DNA from: an uncultured Chloroflexia bacterium
GTDB lineage: Bacteria; Chloroflexota; Limnocylindria; Limnocylindrales; CSP1-4
Assembly (NCBI GenBank): GCA_963713285.1
Contig: CAVQLA010000008.1
Coordinates: forward strand, 67,733-131,732
DNA: 64,000 bases
Direction: 5' to 3'
Position numbers and translations under genes: made by a program. Every line of letters starts with the position of its first letter. Position 1 is the stretch's first letter. The notes under the pieces were generated by a model, which saw only the letters and a program-made list of their open reading frames with translations, ran no database searches and was not told the DNA's origin. Positions 57,257-62,703 of this stretch are shown in pieces.

Positions 57257-58299
57257 GCGATCCCGTCGGCCGCGTGACGCCGGTCGTGCGCGTGGCCCCC
57301 GCCAAGCTCAACCTGACCCTGGCCATCGTGGGCCGGCGCGCCGACGGCTTCCACGCCCTCCACTCGGTGATGGCGCCGCTCGACCTGGCCGACTGGCTGG
57401 CGCTCAGCCCCGCCCACGGCCCGCGAGACCGGCTGCACGTCGTCGGCCCGGACGGGGCGCCGGAGCCGGAGCTCGGCCCGGCCGAGGACAACCTGGTCCT
57501 GCGGGCGATCCGTGCGGTCCGGGCGGCCGTCCGGTCCGCCGGCGACGACCGGCCCCTGCCCCCCCTGGCGGCTCGCCTCGAGAAGCGGATCCCCGCCGCC
57601 GCCGGCCTCGGCGGCGGCTCGTCGGACGCGGCGGCCGCGCTGGACGGGGCGCTCGAGGCCTGGGGGGCCGGCGACGCGCTCGCCCCGGACACCCGGGCGG
57701 CCCTCGCCGCCTCGCTCGGCTCCGACTGTCCCTTCTTCCTCGCTGGCGGCTGGGCGCTCGTCGAGGGGCGCGGAGAGCAGGTCTCGCCGCTGCCTGCCCC
57801 GCGGGGAGAGGCGCCTGGAGTCCTGCTCGTGACCCCGGCCATCGGCGTGTCGACGCCGGCGGTCTTCGCCCGGTATGCCGCGGGCATCCGTCCCGTGGGG
57901 GCGGCCACGCTGGCGTCGTCGCGCTACCTCGCCGGGGAGCTGCAGGCCGGCCTGACGACGACGCGCCTGATCGAGCGCGCCGGCGTCCTGTCGGTGGCCA
58001 ACGACCTGGTGCCGGCGACGAGCGACCTGGTCCCGGCGCTCACCTCCGCCCGACGAGCGCTGGCCCGGCTGCTGGAACGCCCGGTCGGCCAGTCCGGGTC
58101 GGGCCCGACGCTCTGGGCGCTCTCGCCGTCGAAGGCCGATGCGGTCGGGGACGCGGCCATCGTCCGCGCCGCGCTGGCCGACGGCCTGCTCTCGTTCCCG
58201 GGCGACCGGCCCCCGTTCGTCGCCGCCGCTGCGGTCGTCGGCACCCAGGCGACGAGCGTCGCCACCGTCCATCCACACGCCACCCCGTCGTCCCGATAG
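57253..58299 (+). CDS. ispE: 4-diphosphocytidyl-2-C-methyl-D-erythritol kinase
   Basis: GHMP kinase. APAKLNLTLAIVGRRADGFH and PAAAGLGGGSSDAAA motifs. ATGA overlap with rsmA. Confidence 0.85.
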   Translation: MSDPVGRVTPVVRVAPAKLNLTLAIVGRRADGFHALHSVMAPLDLADWLALSPAHGPRDRLHVVGPDGAPEPELGPAEDNLVLRAIRAVRAAVRSAGDDRPLPPLAARLEKRIPAAAGLGGGSSDAAAALDGALEAWGAGDALAPDTRAALAASLGSDCPFFLAGGWALVEGRGEQVSPLPAPRGEAPGVLLVTPAIGVSTPAVFARYAAGIRPVGAATLASSRYLAGELQAGLTTTRLIERAGVLSVANDLVPATSDLVPALTSARRALARLLERPVGQSGSGPTLWALSPSKADAVGDAAIVRAALADGLLSFPGDRPPFVAAAAVVGTQATSVATVHPHATPSSR

Positions 58300-58317
58300 C
58301 GTCCAAGGAGGATCGCC

Positions 58318-58704
58318 ATGCCCCGCACGCCCGTCGCCACCTCGCTCGCCCCGGCCGCCCTCGGCCCGTACAGCCAGGCCATCGCCGCCGGCGGCTTCCT
58401 GTTCTGCTCCGGCCAGCTCGGCCTCGACCCGGCGACCGGCGAGTTCGCCGGCCCCGACGTCGAGACCCAGGCCGAGCGCGCCCTGGCGAACCTCCGGAAC
58501 GTCCTCGACGCGGCCGGCTGTACCTTCGAGGATGTCGTGAAGACGACGATCTTCCTCGCCGACATGGCCGACTTCGCGGCCGTCAATTCGGTCTACGGAC
58601 GGTTCGTGAGCGACCCGCCGCCGGCCCGCTCCACGGTCCAGGTCGCGGCGCTCCCGAAGGGCGGCCGGGTCGAGATCGAGGCCACCGCCCGCCTGCGCGG
58701 CTGA
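58318..58704 (+). CDS. ridA: RidA/YjgF-family reactive enamine/imine deaminase
   Basis: 128 aa. ALGPYSQA..., TTIFLADMADFAAVN, RSTVQV...LPKGGRVEIEA. Confidence 0.85.
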   Translation: MPRTPVATSLAPAALGPYSQAIAAGGFLFCSGQLGLDPATGEFAGPDVETQAERALANLRNVLDAAGCTFEDVVKTTIFLADMADFAAVNSVYGRFVSDPPPARSTVQVAALPKGGRVEIEATARLRG

Positions 58705-58775
58705 GGCCGCACCTTCAGTCCGATCGATACTTCGTGGAGCTCCGACTACTGCAGCTTCGACCTGTGGAGCGATCC
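58705..58775 (+). pseudogene. relic of the 3' end of a gene paralogous to 59707-60141, left upstream of the first lipoprotein copy
   Basis: ttcgtggagctccgactactgcagcttcgacctgtggagcgatccatga aligns with the last 48 nt of the 59707-60141 gene (…ADYRSFDLWSDP*). The upstream reading frame is destroyed. Confidence 0.4.
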
Positions 58776-59342
58776 ATGAGCACTGCTCGAACCCTTCGTC
58801 TGGCTGCAGGTCTGGCACTCCTCGCTGCGTTGGTGGTCGGCTGCGTCGCGCCCGGTGCGAGCCCGACGCCGGTGCCCTCGCCCGCAGGCTCGGCCACGGC
58901 CGCGCCGTCGCTGGCGACGACCCCGGCCGCCAGCCCCACGCCCGATCTGCGGCCCGTCCCCCTCCCGCCCGGTGGCATCTACTCCGGAGAGGTCGTGGAC
59001 CCGGCCCTCGCCACCCTGCCGCTCGAGGAGGCGCTTGCGATCGGCCGGGCCGTCCCGCCGCTTGCTCCGGAGAACAACTGGATCGGGACGAACCCCGTCG
59101 CCCGCCTGATGACCCTCACCAACAGCCACCCGGAGGACGGCTTCGGGCCGCTCGTCGCCTGGGTGATCGTGACGGACGACGCCGCGCCCTTCGGCGGGAC
59201 CGGCCTTCCCACGACGAGCTCGCCGCCGCCGTACAACGGCACGCTCTCCTGGACCATCGTCGGGATGGACGGCAACGTCCTGGACCACGTTCAGGTCGGA
59301 TACTTCGCGCCGAACAGCCCCCCGCCGTTGCCGCGCGACTGA
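58776..59342 (+). CDS. predicted lipoprotein (copy 1), Pro/Ala/Ser/Thr linker plus globular domain
   Basis: Signal peptide with lipobox L-V-V-G-C. Paralogue at 60138..60704. Confidence 0.6.
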   Translation: MSTARTLRLAAGLALLAALVVGCVAPGASPTPVPSPAGSATAAPSLATTPAASPTPDLRPVPLPPGGIYSGEVVDPALATLPLEEALAIGRAVPPLAPENNWIGTNPVARLMTLTNSHPEDGFGPLVAWVIVTDDAAPFGGTGLPTTSSPPPYNGTLSWTIVGMDGNVLDHVQVGYFAPNSPPPLPRD

Positions 59343-59406
59343 CCCGCCGCGGGCCGGCCGATCGGCCCTTGACCGGGGGTATCGTCGGCGCGACGATGTC
59401 GACCCG

Positions 59407-59691
59407 ATGGTGCTCCGATCGGCGCTCCTCGCCCTCGCCGCCGTCCTGGCCCTGCTGGTCAGCCCCCGGGCAGCGCGGGCGGACGACTGCCTCGACGAGG
59501 CGACCCACCTCTTCGTCGGTGGTCACGAGGGTGCTCTCATCTCGACGAGCACGGGCGTGGCGGCCGATGCGGTGCCCAGGAACCCGACGCTCTGCACGCG
59601 CCAGGCCGGGCAGCCGCTCAGCGCCTACGAGAGCGCGTCAGCGGCCTGGGCGATGATCTACAGCACGGCCGATCCCTTCTACTACCACTAG
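59407..59691 (+). CDS. small secreted protein (94 aa, 2 Cys), hypothetical
   Basis: Signal peptide MVLRSALLALAAVLALLVSPRAARA with an AxA cleavage site. No known domain. Confidence 0.5.
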   Translation: MVLRSALLALAAVLALLVSPRAARADDCLDEATHLFVGGHEGALISTSTGVAADAVPRNPTLCTRQAGQPLSAYESASAAWAMIYSTADPFYYH

Positions 59692-59706
59692 GTCGGGTGG
59701 GCGAGA

Positions 59707-60141
59707 GTGCGTGGCGAGACCGCGGCGGTCTGGTTCTCGGAGTGGAACGACGGCTCCACTCCGACGACACGCAAGTCAACGTACTCTCCAACGTGGGGCA
59801 CCCGGTATCGCCTGGTGGTGCGATACACCACGCTCTGGAACAGGTACGTCCTGCTCGACTCGGACGGGTCCATGGTCTGGAACGCCCCCGACGACCCAAC
59901 CAGCCACTCGTGGTATCCGACCGACGCCACGTACGCAGCCGAGACCTGGAACCACGGGGACCGGACCCCCGGCACCTCCTCGCTCAAGGCGCGCCTTGAC
60001 ACCCTCCGCTGGTACGACGAGAACGGCGACATCGTCTACGCCTACATCCCGTCTGTTGACCGCTTCAACGACTACTCGTCGACCTACCACGCCTCGTGGG
60101 GTGCCGACTACCGCAGCTTCGACCTGTGGAGCGATCCATGA
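59707..60141 (+). CDS. hypothetical 144-aa Trp/Tyr/Asn/Thr-rich protein, lower GC than surroundings
   Basis: GTG start after GGGTGGGCGAGAG. ATGA overlap with lipoprotein copy 2. Rich in W/Y/N/T/S/D. No signal peptide. Confidence 0.5.
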   Translation: MRGETAAVWFSEWNDGSTPTTRKSTYSPTWGTRYRLVVRYTTLWNRYVLLDSDGSMVWNAPDDPTSHSWYPTDATYAAETWNHGDRTPGTSSLKARLDTLRWYDENGDIVYAYIPSVDRFNDYSSTYHASWGADYRSFDLWSDP

Positions 60142-60704
60142 TCACCTCCAGCACCCTCCGGCTCGCCACCGGCCTGGCGCTCCTCAGCGCCCTCCTCGCC
60201 GGGTGCGTGGCGCCGGCTGCGAGCCCGACGCCGGTGCCCTCGCCCGCAGGCTCGGCCACGGCCGCGCCGTCGCTGGCGACGACCCCGGCCGCCAGCCCCA
60301 CGCCCGATCTGCGGCCCGTCCCCCTCCCGCCCGGTGGCATCTACTCCGGAGAGGTCGTGGACCCGGCCCTCGCCACCCTGCCGCTCGAGGAGGCGCTTGC
60401 GATCGGCCGGGCCGTCCCGCCGCTTGCCCCGGAGAACAACTGGGTCGGAACGAACCCGGTCGCGCGCCTGATGACCCTCACCAACAGCCACCCGGAGGAC
60501 GGCTTCGGGCCGCTGCTTGCGTGGGTGATCGTGACGGACGACGCGCCGCCCTTCCGTGGCACCGGGCTCCCGACGACGAGCTCGCCCCCGCCGTACCTCG
60601 GCACGCTCTCCTGGACGATCGTCGGCATGGACGGCACCCTCCTCGACCAGGTCCAGGGGCGCTACTTCGTGCCGAACAGCCCGCCGCCGCTGCCGCGGGA
60701 CTGA
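60138..60704 (+). CDS. predicted lipoprotein (copy 2)
   Basis: Signal peptide with lipobox L-L-A-G-C. The 5' half is about 270 nt identical to copy 1 and the 3' half is diverged. Confidence 0.6.
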   Translation: MITSSTLRLATGLALLSALLAGCVAPAASPTPVPSPAGSATAAPSLATTPAASPTPDLRPVPLPPGGIYSGEVVDPALATLPLEEALAIGRAVPPLAPENNWVGTNPVARLMTLTNSHPEDGFGPLLAWVIVTDDAPPFRGTGLPTTSSPPPYLGTLSWTIVGMDGTLLDQVQGRYFVPNSPPPLPRD

Positions 60705-60712
60705 CTGCGCCC

Positions 60713-60765
60713 GGGCGTCTCGCGACGCCCGTCGGTGTCGGAGGGCCGCGACGCCGACCGTCGCG
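60713..60765 (+). terminator. two tandem GC-rich hairpins (GGGCGTC-tcgc-GACGCCC and CGCGACG-ccgac-CGTCGCG) after the lipoprotein cassette
   Basis: Perfect inverted repeats read directly. No U-tract, as is common in high-GC genomes. Confidence 0.45.
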
Positions 60766-61263
60766 CGGCAAGGGACGTTGTGGCCGGGGTACGGGTGCGC
60801 CCCTGCTCACGGCCGCGCCAGGGCCAACGGCAACCCGGGGAGTGGGGCGGCGTGACGGGCGCCGACGGCGGCCATACCGGGTCTCGCGCCAGTGAGGCTG
60901 GCGGGGACGGCGGCGTCCGTGCTCACGTCGCCCCCGGAAGTCGCGGTTCGACCGGCGACGTGAGCGTGCAGACCACCGATCCTGCCAGTGCGGCTGGCAT
61001 CGACCCGCGCACGGAGCCTGAGGTGCCCGTGGCCCTGGCAGTCCGGGCGCAATGCCAGCCCGGCTGGCGCGATGCCGAGTTCCGCGTCCCTCGGCGTCGA
61101 TGTGTCCCTGCGGCCCCCACGAGCGCCCGTCGGTTGACGAACCGGCAGGCGCGCCCCTACGATCCCGGCACCACATGACAGCCGAACCAGCAACGCCGGA
61201 CGACCGTCGCCCGGACCCCGAGCCCATCGCGCTCGCGGGTCGCCCCGTCCGCACCGCCCCGCG

Positions 61264-62703
61264 ATGACCCATCCCGTTGCCGTCGTGCTCGCCGGGGGGC
61301 TCGGCACGCGCATGAAATCCGGCACTCCCAAGCTCCTGCACCCCCTGTGCGGGCGCCCGATGCTGGCGTTCGTCCTGGACGCGGCCCGCGCGGCGACCGG
61401 TGCCGATCCCGTCGTGGTCGTCTCGCCGGCCACCGCCGCGGTGCGCGACGCGTTCCCCGCCGGCGTCATGTTCGCGCTCCAGGAGCGGCCGGACGGCACC
61501 GGCGACGCCCTCCGGGCCGGGCTGGCGGCCGTCCCGGTCGACGCCGACGAGATCGCCGTGATCAACGGCGACGTCCCCCTCCTCGAGGCCGACCTGGTCG
61601 CCGGCGTGCTCGCCCGCCGCCGCGAGGCCGGCGCGGCACTGGCCCTGGTCTCGTTCGAGACGTGGGAGCCGGGCCGGCTGGGCCGCGTGATCCGGACCGA
61701 CGACGGGGAGACGGTCGCGCGGATCGTGGAGGCCAGAGACGCGACCCCCGACGAGCTGGCCGTCGGCGAGGTCAACGCCGGGCTCTACGCCTTCGACGCT
61801 GCCTGGCTGCGCGGCGCGATCGGGCGCCTGACACCATCGCCGGCCACGGGGGAGCTCTATCTGACCCAGCTCGTCGACCTGGCCCGCGCCGACGGGCGCC
61901 CGGTGGTGGCCCTCGAGGCCGACGACGACGGGACGCTCGACGGGATCAACGACCGGGTCCAGCTGGCCGAGGCGACGGCGATGCTCCGCGAGCGGATCAA
62001 CGTCGCCTGGATGCGGGCCGGGGTCACGATGCTCGACCCGGCCACGGCCTACGTCGATGCCGACGTGGAGCTGGCCCCGGACGTCACCCTGGAGCCGAAC
62101 GTCATCCTGCGCGGCGGCACGCGAATCGGGGAGGGGACCGTCATCGGCGCCGGGAGCCAGGTCATCGACAGCGAGGTCGGCCCACGCTGCCGCGTGTGGG
62201 CCAGCGTCCTCGAGCGCTCCACGGTGGAGGAGGGGACCACCATCGGGCCCTTCAGCCACCTGCGCCCCGGCAGCTCGATCGGGCCGGGCGTCGAGATCGG
62301 CAACTACGCCGAGGTCAAGAACAGCCGCCTCGACGCGGGCGTGAAGCAGCACCACGTGAGCTACCTCGGCGACGCCCACCTGGGCGAGGGGACGAACGTG
62401 GGCGCCGGCACGATCACCGCCAACTACGACGGCGTCCGCAAGCACCGCACCGAGATCGGCAAGGGGGTCTTCCTGGGCGTCGACACGATGCTGCGCGCCC
62501 CGGTGACGCTCGGCGACGGGTCGAAGACCGGGGCGGGAGCCGTGGTCACGAGGGACGTCCCGCCCGGCAAGCTGGCGGTCGGGGTTCCCGCCCGGATCCG
62601 CGACCCGCGACCCGCCGCTGCGCCGGCGGACGGAGGCGCGGTCACAGCAGACCCGGTCGAACCGGCGGCGGACCCGTCACCTCCTCGGGAGGGAGCCTCC
62701 TGA
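61264..62703 (+). CDS. glmU: bifunctional UDP-N-acetylglucosamine pyrophosphorylase / glucosamine-1-phosphate N-acetyltransferase
   Basis: N-terminal LAGGLGTRMKS. C-terminal left-handed beta-helix hexapeptide repeats. Confidence 0.9.
   Translation: MTHPVAVVLAGGLGTRMKSGTPKLLHPLCGRPMLAFVLDAARAATGADPVVVVSPATAAVRDAFPAGVMFALQERPDGTGDALRAGLAAVPVDADEIAVINGDVPLLEADLVAGVLARRREAGAALALVSFETWEPGRLGRVIRTDDGETVARIVEARDATPDELAVGEVNAGLYAFDAAWLRGAIGRLTPSPATGELYLTQLVDLARADGRPVVALEADDDGTLDGINDRVQLAEATAMLRERINVAWMRAGVTMLDPATAYVDADVELAPDVTLEPNVILRGGTRIGEGTVIGAGSQVIDSEVGPRCRVWASVLERSTVEEGTTIGPFSHLRPGSSIGPGVEIGNYAEVKNSRLDAGVKQHHVSYLGDAHLGEGTNVGAGTITANYDGVRKHRTEIGKGVFLGVDTMLRAPVTLGDGSKTGAGAVVTRDVPPGKLAVGVPARIRDPRPAAAPADGGAVTADPVEPAADPSPPREGAS

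Follow-up and report, generated by a model that had tools for sequence, protein, structure and literature searches.

The locus described here lies within a window of 64,000 nucleotides (the whole stretch of DNA analysed) from an uncultured Chloroflexia bacterium, and it comprises two paralogous lipoprotein genes with the gene of a secreted protein between them, the latter interrupted by a TAG codon. Its features and boundaries are as follows.

58318-58704, + strand: ridA, encoding a Rid family deaminase (PF01042, E 6e-44; TIGR00004, E 1e-48), the upstream boundary of the locus
58733..58779, + strand: relic of the 3' end of the peptidase-like gene, copied to a site upstream of lipoprotein copy 1, its DNA about 90% identical to 60090-60141
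58776-59342, + strand: lipoprotein copy 1, 188 aa, from the ORF and alignments
58856-59065, + strand: conversion tract in copy 1, matching 60218-60427 at all 210 nt
59407-60141, + strand: gene of a secreted 244-aa glutamic-peptidase-like protein, disrupted by TAG
59689-59691, + strand: nonsense TAG in place of CAG (Gln95), by comparison with L002 and L001
60138-60704, + strand: lipoprotein copy 2, 188 aa, its start overlapping the upstream stop (ATGA)
60218-60427, + strand: conversion tract in copy 2, whose sequence is of the copy-1 type
60718-61106, + strand: G+C-rich intergenic insert of 389 nt with long inverted repeats
61134..61163, + strand: promoter-like site TTGACG-18-TACGAT upstream of glmU
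61264-62703: glmU, the downstream boundary of the locus

The position of the block between ridA and glmU, which was part of the original prediction, was confirmed by the ORF list and, in the case of ridA, by the Pfam match; ridA is also the neighbour in L002, L007 and L013. No mobility or tRNA genes are adjacent to the locus. The hairpins that had been placed at its 3' border lie inside the 389-nt insert, and a search for an intrinsic terminator on the + strand found none. This insert, which is present in L007 and L013 and missing from L002, showed an RNA fold z-score of -3.3, and an Rfam search of 58000-61400 produced no match; it is probably not part of the module discussed below. A 147-aa ORF within it (60735-61178) was dismissed for its implausible composition. 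The promoter-like site is kept in the window, L007 and L002.

The block had also been described as having about 62% GC against about 72% in its surroundings, and hence as horizontally acquired. Exact calculation gave 71.4% for the block, 72.4% for the window and 74-75% for the flanking genes, and this erased the gap, an outcome that the prediction itself had named as weakening the idea of transfer; thus, horizontal acquisition receives no compositional support. A lower GC is limited to the 3' ORF of the disrupted gene (64.8%), because its first codon position stands at 51% and its product is rich in W, Y, T, S, N and D; its GC3 (88%) is typical here, the values for all the genes of the cassette being 88-94%.

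A secreted protein gene interrupted by a TAG codon

Between the lipoprotein genes, two small genes had been proposed (59407-59691 and 59707-60141). However, both belong to one frame, with a single TAG at 59689-59691 between them, and the intact orthologues are secreted proteins of 244 and 248 aa (range 244-248) with Gln at that codon. The codon context is CAC TAG GTC in the window and CAC CAG GTC in L002, and CAG is also found in L001. The protein predicted from the restored frame has a signal peptide at residues 1-25 (cleavage …AARA/DD), conserved cysteines C28 and C63, Q95 replaced by the stop, and E179.

The TAG was also detected in an independent Logan assembly, L014 (run ERR11561443), which is 100% identical to the window over 1125 nt, TAG included. 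An in-frame stop within a conserved domain, the existence of intact orthologues and the recurrence of the TAG in L014 are the marks of a nonsense pseudogene. Compared with L002, dN/dS was 0.15 before the stop and 0.20 after it, similar to the 0.16-0.17 of the housekeeping neighbours, and therefore purifying selection acted on both halves until recently. We rejected recoding of the TAG, or readthrough, as this codon is an ordinary stop here: of the 44 long ORFs with high GC3 in the window, 17 end with it. A suppressor tRNA was not found either.

Duplication and conversion of the lipoprotein genes

The two 188-aa lipoproteins are indeed paralogues, as had been proposed, with 89.1% identity in DNA and 90% in protein at an offset of 1362 nt. 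Copy 1 starts with a signal peptide and a lipobox, followed by a Pro/Ala/Ser/Thr linker, the conserved motif TPDLRPVPLPPG and about 120 aa of globular domain. The lipoboxes, read by eye from the sequence letters, are ...AALVVG/C in copy 1 and ...ALLAG/C in copy 2, in agreement with the bacterial lipoprotein pattern [LVI][ASTVI][GAS]C, and their Cys is kept in the full-length homologues. The family is rare, with only 12 clusters out of 5.8 billion proteins and no match in Pfam, NCBIfam or the PDB sequences; a search for related loci with the lipoprotein alignment returned only two genome loci and one metagenome locus.

An old duplication followed by later gene conversion was correctly recognised in the original prediction, although the converted segment was misplaced. 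Instead of the first 270 nt or so, the exact comparison showed identity over gene nucleotides 81-290, a tract of 210 nt in the middle of the gene that takes in the linker and some 33 residues at the start of the globular domain; the 80 nt before it, which encode the signal peptide and lipobox, reach only 67%. The 3' parts are 87% identical, with 18 synonymous and 11 non-synonymous codon differences. This 210-nt identity cannot be due to chance, because its flanks diverge by 13-33% and, in the sister genome L002, the two copies share only 89% identity over this tract. The pattern of a 210-nt tract at 100% between flanks at 67% and 87%, with L002 copies that were not homogenised, is that of gene conversion. 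In the 3' part, orthologues of the window and L002 are closer (93.5% for the first copies, 92.1% for the second) than paralogues (87.4% and 85.6%), whereas within the tract both copies of the window are nearer to copy 1 of L002 (94.3%) than to its copy 2 (89.5%).

The homology between both copies extends about 45 nt upstream of copy 1, where the sequence reads TSWSSDYCSFDLWSDP followed by a stop, compared with ASWGADYRSFDLWSDP and a stop before copy 2. This stretch is a relic of the gene in front of copy 2, namely of its 3' end, and it includes the GGAG ribosome-binding site and the ATGA overlap common to both copies. At the position of the relic, L002 and L007 retain only about the last 11-22 nt.

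The accessory status attributed to the locus was borne out by its relatives. In L007 and L013 there are only ridA, one lipoprotein gene and glmU, with the enzyme gene absent and a single chimeric lipoprotein gene kept; a collapse of the repeat during assembly could also have produced these enzyme-less contigs. At another locus, a more distant relative has a single pair, and in L001/L003 the pair sits between unrelated genes. Such polymorphism in presence or location (L007, L013, L001/L003) is as expected for a genomic island. The loss is asymmetric, since the enzyme gene is lost or broken and the partner retained in the window, L007 and L013, and solo partner genes are found in L004, L005 and L006.

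Fold and conserved residues of the putative enzyme family

The AF2 model obtained from 55 sequences of the family (pLDDT 92.9, pTM 0.87) is a single beta-sandwich; an alignment of 3 sequences had yielded an unusable model (pLDDT 38). In Foldseek, it matched scytalidoglutamic peptidase (SGP; E 1.6e-7) and neprosin (E 8e-7), each with probability 1.0, and glutamic peptidases were the top fold matches in both structure-search programs. The predicted model has the 7+7 antiparallel beta-sandwich of SGP/AGP and also the fold of the neprosin catalytic domain. The family amounts to about 70 bacterial sequence clusters, and its homologue P0057 has the domain fused to a Kelch beta-propeller. The family alignments are devoid of any conserved stretch of 7-10 residues.

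Q95 is present in 54 of the 55 members and E179 in all of them. With hhalign, Q95 was put on Q53 of SGP, though weakly (E 0.035; range against SGP 0.02-0.035), and the extended alignment put E179 on E136 within its low-confidence part, the global mode giving a meaningless alignment against SGP. For this comparison, the SGP sequence was checked against 1s2b and the dyads were compared by sequence alignment and spacing. At the sequence level, no Pfam match to PF01828 (Peptidase_A4) was obtained for the window ORFs (E<=1) or the 55 members (E<=0.1), nor was any match to PF03080 (Neprosin) or PF14365 (Neprosin_AP) found among these ORFs and members; NCBIfam gave no peptidase-family membership for the enzyme family, and a profile search of the PDB sequences did not recover 1S2B or 1Y43. 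The best reading is that of an unannotated bacterial family with a predicted glutamic-peptidase fold and a Gln/Glu pair. The original prediction had assigned no function, but fold and conserved residues suggest a glutamic-type peptidase.

Eqolisins (MEROPS G1; 1S2B/2IFW, 1Y43; PF01828) are likewise secreted beta-sandwich proteins of about 200 aa with a conserved, putatively equivalent Gln...Glu pair at near-identical spacing (83 residues between Q53 and E136 of SGP in mature numbering, versus 84 between Q95 and E179), and their motifs S-x-S-x-AW-x-M...Q-x-G and TAWVGIDG...LQTG align with this family. In contrast, the present family falls outside their Pfam and HMM models, with ~14% identity in structural alignments; it has a different conserved disulfide, C28-C63, and no pro-peptide. 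The conserved domain begins at C28, right after the predicted cleavage site, and this start together with the length of 244 aa leaves no room for a pro-region. Moreover, eqolisins are mainly fungal, whereas this family is bacterial, including an uncultured Chloroflexia MAG, and the gene here is coupled to that of a membrane-anchored partner. Known glutamic peptidases are active at acid pH and have pro-peptides, the eqolisins being endopeptidases insensitive to pepstatin; the source environment in this case is not known to be acidic.

Neprosin, the glutamic prolyl endopeptidase of Nepenthes (family G3; 7ZVC/7ZU8; PF03080, PF14365), has a Glu/Glu dyad (E188/E297), whereas the first position of the present family is Gln, again in 54/55 members. 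The E188Q mutant of neprosin is inactive, and the Glu plus the assistant position occupied by Gln or Glu are the sole active-site features common to G1 peptidases and neprosin (PMC9343461). Neprosin is also made as a zymogen; its pro-domain is all-beta and plugs the active site with Lys118. Such a pro-domain is absent from this family and, by analogy, a separate tethered protein might take over its role in latency. The Arg of the TPDLRPVPLP motif was considered as a plug similar to Lys118, and dropped, as it is missing in the L009 partner (TPD---IPMPPG). With YncM of Bacillus subtilis (4HFS) and HC7/DUF3472 (8PMU), the latter a larger protein crystallised with a glycopeptide, a sequence relationship to the family was not detected.

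Alternatively, the secreted protein would be a carbohydrate-active or carbohydrate-binding protein, that is, a concanavalin-like glucanase, a lectin or a di-glutamate glycopeptidase acting on cell-wall or environmental glycans, with the lipoprotein positioning or regulating it. We consider this unlikely: the top matches in both structure programs were glutamic peptidases, the family has a single invariant carboxylate where enzymes of the GH16 type, retaining or inverting, need two, the second conserved residue is a Gln at the eqolisin spacing, and no CAZy-type Pfam matches were obtained among the 55 members.

Partner genes and the proposed module

Each of the 6 family members whose surroundings were inspected has, directly downstream of the enzyme gene at -11 to +11 nt, a gene whose small product carries an N-terminal anchor or signal sequence. 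The partner of the distant member P0021, in L009, is homologous to the lipoproteins of the window (E 2e-10) and has a TM anchor in place of the lipobox; for the remoter members P0034 and P0042, homology of the partner to the lipoprotein was not detectable. The overlap between the stop of the upstream ORF and the start of copy 2, seen already in the original prediction, is repeated as an ATGA enzyme-partner arrangement in L002 and L001, and because of this overlap the enzyme gene and copy 2 are translationally coupled. To the eye, the partner may be PepSY-like (a helix and then strands ending in "DGTLLD"/"DATTGEF"); no Pfam PepSY match appeared even at E<=10, which leaves the resemblance a tentative lead.

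Co-transcribed pairs of a secreted protease and its inhibitor are known in KLIKK-potempin lipoproteins of Tannerella, AprA-AprI, staphopain-staphostatin and protealysin-emfourin. In these pairs, the small partner gene comes right after the protease gene, the partner shields the producing cell or controls latency and, in the case of potempin, it is a lipoprotein. Unlike the glutamic-type enzyme proposed here, their proteases are of the metallo or cysteine class, and no homology of the partner to inhibitors of the KLIKK, AprI, staphostatin or emfourin type was found. Gene linkage and the pattern of loss suggest that the partner is possibly an inhibitor.

A toxin/immunity or surface-receptor pair had been suggested, as a speculation, for the cassette. 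The direction of the toxin/immunity guess was right, in that an enzyme is accompanied by a tethered partner. As with the orphan immunity genes of toxin-immunity loci, the partner is duplicated and outlives the effector gene, and as in tandem paralogues under concerted evolution, direct repeats are subject to gene conversion and recombinational collapse. On the other hand, no recognised toxin domain, dedicated secretion system or polymorphic C-terminal toxin architecture is present here, and the effector has a plain Sec signal peptide.

Taken as a whole, the locus inclines us somewhat to read it as a two-component extracytoplasmic module whose enzyme has been inactivated and whose partner has been duplicated. 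The enzyme would be exported by the Sec route as a mature protein of ~220 aa, a beta-sandwich endopeptidase of the glutamic type in which E179 would activate the water with the assistance of Q95, as in the Gln53/Glu136 dyad of eqolisins. Its partner, a globular domain of ~120 aa that a lipid anchor and a Pro-rich tether would keep at the membrane's outer face, would bind the enzyme; a cognate inhibitor or a factor for self-protection is its likeliest role, and an anchor that keeps the enzyme at the cell surface is the alternative. The partner gene and the tail of the enzyme gene were duplicated before the split from L002, producing the order lipoprotein-enzyme-lipoprotein; in a later step, 210 nt of copy 1 overwrote copy 2 by gene conversion, and then a C-to-T change probably turned the Gln95 codon into TAG, so that both partner genes are intact but the enzyme gene is dead. 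Gene structure, stop codon, predicted fold, conserved residues, gene coupling, conversion tract and contigs devoid of the enzyme gene are results of the analysis, whereas peptidase activity and the part played by the partner are putative.

This last step depends on the TAG being real. If a methylated CCWGG site had led to a wrong base call or consensus here, the gene would be intact and the enzyme-partner module functional. The change, CCAGG to CTAGG, does fall on the inner C of a motif of the Dcm type, purifying selection is seen in both halves, the close relatives P0001 and P0019 are intact, and the L014 assembly may come from the same sample. Nevertheless, the TAG is present in that assembly of ERR11561443 with 100% identity over its 1125 nt, 322 other CCWGG sites of the window are unconverted, deamination of 5-methylcytosine makes such a site a genuine mutational hotspot too, and the gene was independently lost in L007 and L013, so that an error looks distinctly unlikely. 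The best reading is thus a recent inactivation of the enzyme gene in this genome.

A non-enzymatic surface complex, in which an adhesin or receptor is held by its anchor and the Gln and Glu are structural or bind a ligand, appears improbable. Peptidase activity is indeed deduced from fold and residues, the fusion of P0057 to a Kelch beta-propeller has a layout common in binding proteins, and YncM, the nearest bacterial structure, has no known function; against this, a single Glu of the buried-cleft type and a Gln that stay invariant at 20-30% identity are typical of catalysis, and the fold matches enzymes far more strongly than it does lectin-like binders. Finally, the model of two genes for a secreted 2-Cys and a cytoplasmic W/Y-rich protein on a low-GC, horizontally acquired island, for example a toxin/immunity pair, is hardly credible despite the 94-aa and 144-aa products annotated in the source record and the variable presence of the locus across relatives, since the intact orthologues already refute it, exact calculation removes the GC difference, and the ORFs make up the two co-linear halves of a conserved 244-aa domain whose model is a single beta-sandwich, the 144-aa ORF having half the fold and no signal peptide.

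A bolder form of the module seems rather unlikely to us, though worth stating: the enzymes would form a new bacterial glutamic-peptidase family at the MEROPS level, with a neprosin-like fold, an eqolisin-type Gln/Glu dyad, no pro-peptide and a membrane-tethered inhibitor, and would act as Sec-dependent contact or short-range antibacterial (or cell-wall-remodelling) effectors with the partner as immunity protein. If true, this would account for the duplication of the partner, its persistence as an orphan and its outlasting of the enzyme gene.

Since this genome probably has a dead enzyme, the biological significance of the locus lies with the family and not with this copy. To our knowledge, no catalytic class of proteases has been studied less than the glutamic peptidases. 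According to PMC9343461, only two eqolisins and neprosin have been structurally characterised, and only one bacterial member has been functionally assessed. The locus also illustrates how one nonsense codon can give rise to two plausible-looking "hypothetical proteins" in annotation, and how gene conversion and the recombinational collapse of short direct repeats operate on an accessory locus among close relatives. If the proposed reading is true, a bacterial family of ~70 clusters with an eqolisin-type dyad would widen the glutamic peptidase class, and the absence of a pro-domain together with a dedicated membrane-anchored partner suggests that its members may reach latency or localisation by another route.

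The interrupted putative enzyme gene

Two lipoprotein genes lie between ridA and glmU with a putative enzyme gene between them, as listed here by window position:

58318-58704, forward strand, ridA
58776-59342, forward strand, lipoprotein copy 1
59343-59406, 64-nt spacer
59407-60141, forward strand, enzyme gene, with an in-frame TAG at 59689-59691
60138-60704, forward strand, lipoprotein copy 2
60718-61106, forward strand, 389-nt insert
61264-62703, forward strand, glmU

ORFs 59407-59691 and 59707-60141, originally predicted to be two separate small genes, share one frame and are divided by this single TAG. A search with the joined translation revealed the intact proteins P0001 (244 aa, 91% identical) and P0002 (248 aa, 58% identical), with P0019 as a further intact variant, so that a single gene is present. 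At the stop site, the window reads CAC TAG GTC versus CAC CAG GTC in the related contig L002, and the dN/dS between both sequences was 0.15 upstream and 0.20 downstream of the stop, near the 0.16-0.17 of rsmA, ridA and glmU. Purifying selection therefore acted on both halves during most of the time since divergence, and the stop arose recently. In the window TAG serves as a normal stop codon, ending 17 of the 44 long high-GC3 ORFs, and no suppressor tRNA is present there.

The nonsense change (59686-59692), CCAGG to CTAGG, affects the inner C of a Dcm-type CCWGG motif, of which the window holds 322 sites compared to only 6 of CTAGG, and would fit deamination of 5-methylcytosine. The same position leaves room for a systematic base-calling error instead of a real mutation, but this is unlikely, as the Logan assembly L014 (run ERR11561443) is 100% identical to 59123-60247, TAG included. 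The L014 contig terminates within the lipoprotein repeats, as a true repeat would give.

The block had also been described as of low GC, whereas exact calculation gave 71.4%, compared to 72.4% in the whole window and 74-75% in ridA and glmU. The sole lower-GC ORF is 59707-60141 (64.8%; GC3 88%), because its first codon position is low (51%), reflecting a W/Y/T/S/N/D-rich composition. The 64-nt spacer contains a perfect 6-bp GC hairpin (GGGCCG-gccgat-CGGCCC) and a TTGACC hexamer 5′ of the enzyme gene, kept in L002; neither was flagged by the promoter/terminator scan. A single copy of the 389-nt insert (about 76% GC) is present in the window, separating copy 2 from the glmU promoter, and it carries long inverted repeats (e.g. 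60898-60932 with 60954-60988), with an RNA fold z-score of -3.3 and no match in Rfam. It is common to L007 (near-identical save for short tandem duplications) and L013, is missing from L002, and may be a MITE-like element, a leader or an sRNA.

The enzyme-like family and its putative catalytic pair

No match was found in Pfam, NCBIfam or PDB sequence searches for the window ORFs or 55 homologues. Searching 1.84 billion representative proteins exhaustively with a profile gave 67 matches at E<=1e-3, nearly all of 240-270 aa and matching end to end. In the alignment of 55 members, C28, C63, G97, E179 and G189 were invariant, Q95 was conserved in 54 and W241 in 51, and the consensus motifs were S-x-S-x-AW-x-M, YAQ-x-GY, GET-x4-DD-x-PGT and F-x-IWT. 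AlphaFold2 on this alignment produced a confident all-beta model (pLDDT 92.9, pTM 0.87).

The family was compared by hhalign with scytalidoglutamic peptidase (SGP; eqolisin, MEROPS G1; Gln53/Glu136 dyad), the sequence of which was checked against 1S2B. The only local alignment (E 0.035) placed S-x-S-x-AW-x-M...HQ95VGW on TAWVGIDG...LQ53TGF, and relaxed settings extended it to 181 columns, with E179 also placed on E136; the Gln-Glu spacing is 84 residues in the family versus 83 in SGP. The sole active-site features common to G1 enzymes and neprosin (G3) are the catalytic Glu and the position of its Gln/Glu assistant (PMC9343461). From this placement and these shared features, the family is read as glutamic-peptidase-like, with a putative eqolisin-type dyad on a neprosin-like scaffold. 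By sequence it belongs to neither G1 nor G3, and neprosin needs Glu where the bacterial family has Gln. No pro-peptide is present, because the domain starts directly after the signal peptide. In P0057 (538 aa), an N-terminal Kelch beta-propeller (Pfam E 7e-44) is fused to the peptidase-like domain. The window TAG deletes exactly the putative catalytic Gln and all residues downstream.

Duplication and conversion of the lipoprotein gene

As predicted, the 188-aa ORFs at 58776-59342 and 60138-60704 are paralogous lipoproteins, 89.1% identical in DNA and 90% in protein (ORF listing and exact ungapped comparison, offset 1362 nt). In both, a basic n-region leads into a hydrophobic core and then a lipobox (LVVG/C and LLAG/C); after a Pro/Ala/Ser/Thr linker come a conserved motif, TPDLRPVPLPPG, and a globular region of about 120 aa. 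Identity had been assigned to the first 270 nt or so, whereas it is confined to an internal tract of 210 nt:

Identity of copies 1 and 2 along the lipoprotein gene
nt 1-80, signal peptide and lipobox region: 67%
nt 81-290 (58856-59065 and 60218-60427), homogenised tract: 100%
nt 291-567, 3′ part: 87%, with 18 synonymous and 11 non-synonymous codon differences

Similarity continues for about 45 nt 5′ of copy 1, where the DNA reads ...TSWSSDYCSFDLWSDP*. By its sequence this is a remnant of the terminal codons of the gene preceding copy 2, which ends ...ASWGADYRSFDLWSDP*, and therefore the duplication took in the tail of that gene along with the lipoprotein gene.

Related loci
L002, ENA metagenome contig: tsaE-tsaB-rimI-tsaD-rsmA-ispE-ridA-lipoprotein-enzyme-lipoprotein-glmU, as in the window; enzyme gene intact
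L001/L003, MAG labelled "uncultured Chloroflexia bacterium": single enzyme-lipoprotein pair at another locus, between an HTH/Clp_N/rpsO group and a glycosyltransferase gene
L004, same MAG: solo lipoprotein paralogue adjoining lpdA
L007 (GCA_025490975.1) and L013 (JGI metagenome): ridA, one lipoprotein gene and glmU, without enzyme gene

In the 3′ part, orthologues of the window and L002 are 93.5% and 92.1% identical compared to 87.4% and 85.6% for paralogues; therefore, the duplication predates the split of the window genome from L002. Across the 210-nt tract, the identical window copies are each 94.3% identical to L002 copy 1 and 89.5% to copy 2, and the two copies of L002 differ by 11%, which indicates that copy 2 was converted by copy 1 in the window lineage, sequence constraint not being the cause. 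The single gene of L007 is chimeric, its 5′ end being of copy-1 type (94% to L002 copy 1) and its 3′ end, together with the flank beyond it, of copy-2 type (95-100% to L002 copy 2). This is exactly the product expected had the two direct repeats recombined; a reverse Campbell-type event or assembly collapse could also have produced it. Thus, old duplication, gene conversion and an accessory locus, with the enzyme gene absent from L007 and L013 and the pair elsewhere in L001/L003, stand from the original prediction; it fails on the two small genes, the low GC and the placement of the tract in the 5′ half.

Over the signal-peptide region (58776-58855), copy 1 has just 61-64% identity to the orthologues at the same position in L002 and L007; those two share 94% with one another, and identity in the neighbouring tract is 94%. 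A break this abrupt suggests that copy 1 recombined with an unsampled third allele. The dS against L002 was 0.24-0.32 for ridA and the cassette, below the flanking rsmA (0.50) and glmU (0.53), and blastn identity was 90.9% for the cassette versus 83% and 87% for the flanks (window 58318-60704 compared). One possible cause is that lineages exchanged this segment more recently.

The partner protein

The lipoprotein family is very small, with 12 clusters in a set of 5.8 billion proteins, and neither domain nor PDB sequence searches gave a match. In every enzyme family member with readable context, a small-protein gene with an N-terminal anchor or signal sequence lies directly 3′ of the enzyme gene, the junction being an ATGA overlap (window, L002), a TGATG overlap (L001), an 11-nt overlap (P0020 and P0021), a 7-nt gap (P0034, 957 to 965) or an 11-nt gap (P0042). 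The P0021 partner has full-length homology to the lipoproteins (E 2e-10), with a TM anchor replacing the lipobox; those of P0034 and P0042 have only architecture in common with them. The partner gene is found without the enzyme gene in L004, L005/L006, L007 and L013; the window retains it in intact form next to a broken enzyme gene.

In L004 (7860-10097), the solo paralogue has no stop before the lpdA (dihydrolipoyl dehydrogenase) frame, and the resulting 745-aa ORF may represent a fusion or stem from a missed stop or sequencing error. The more distant homologues of L005 (2922-6359) and L006 (3432-6247) belong to a different conserved cluster, encoding a GEGG-repeat protein (210 aa), a 174-aa membrane protein, a 305-aa polytopic membrane protein, the stop of which overlaps the lipoprotein start, the lipoprotein and a 193-aa acidic protein, with no Pfam domain in any.

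The genes are tightly coupled, the partner is tethered outside the cytoplasm, and its gene is duplicated and outlives the enzyme gene. This fits best with a binding partner that would restrain, or protect against, the putative enzyme, an anchoring or chaperone role being the main alternative. The locus is a decaying example of a putative enzyme-partner module, and its undescribed family is related to glutamic peptidases by the modelled fold. Its significance rests with the family and its partner and not with the inactivated window copy.
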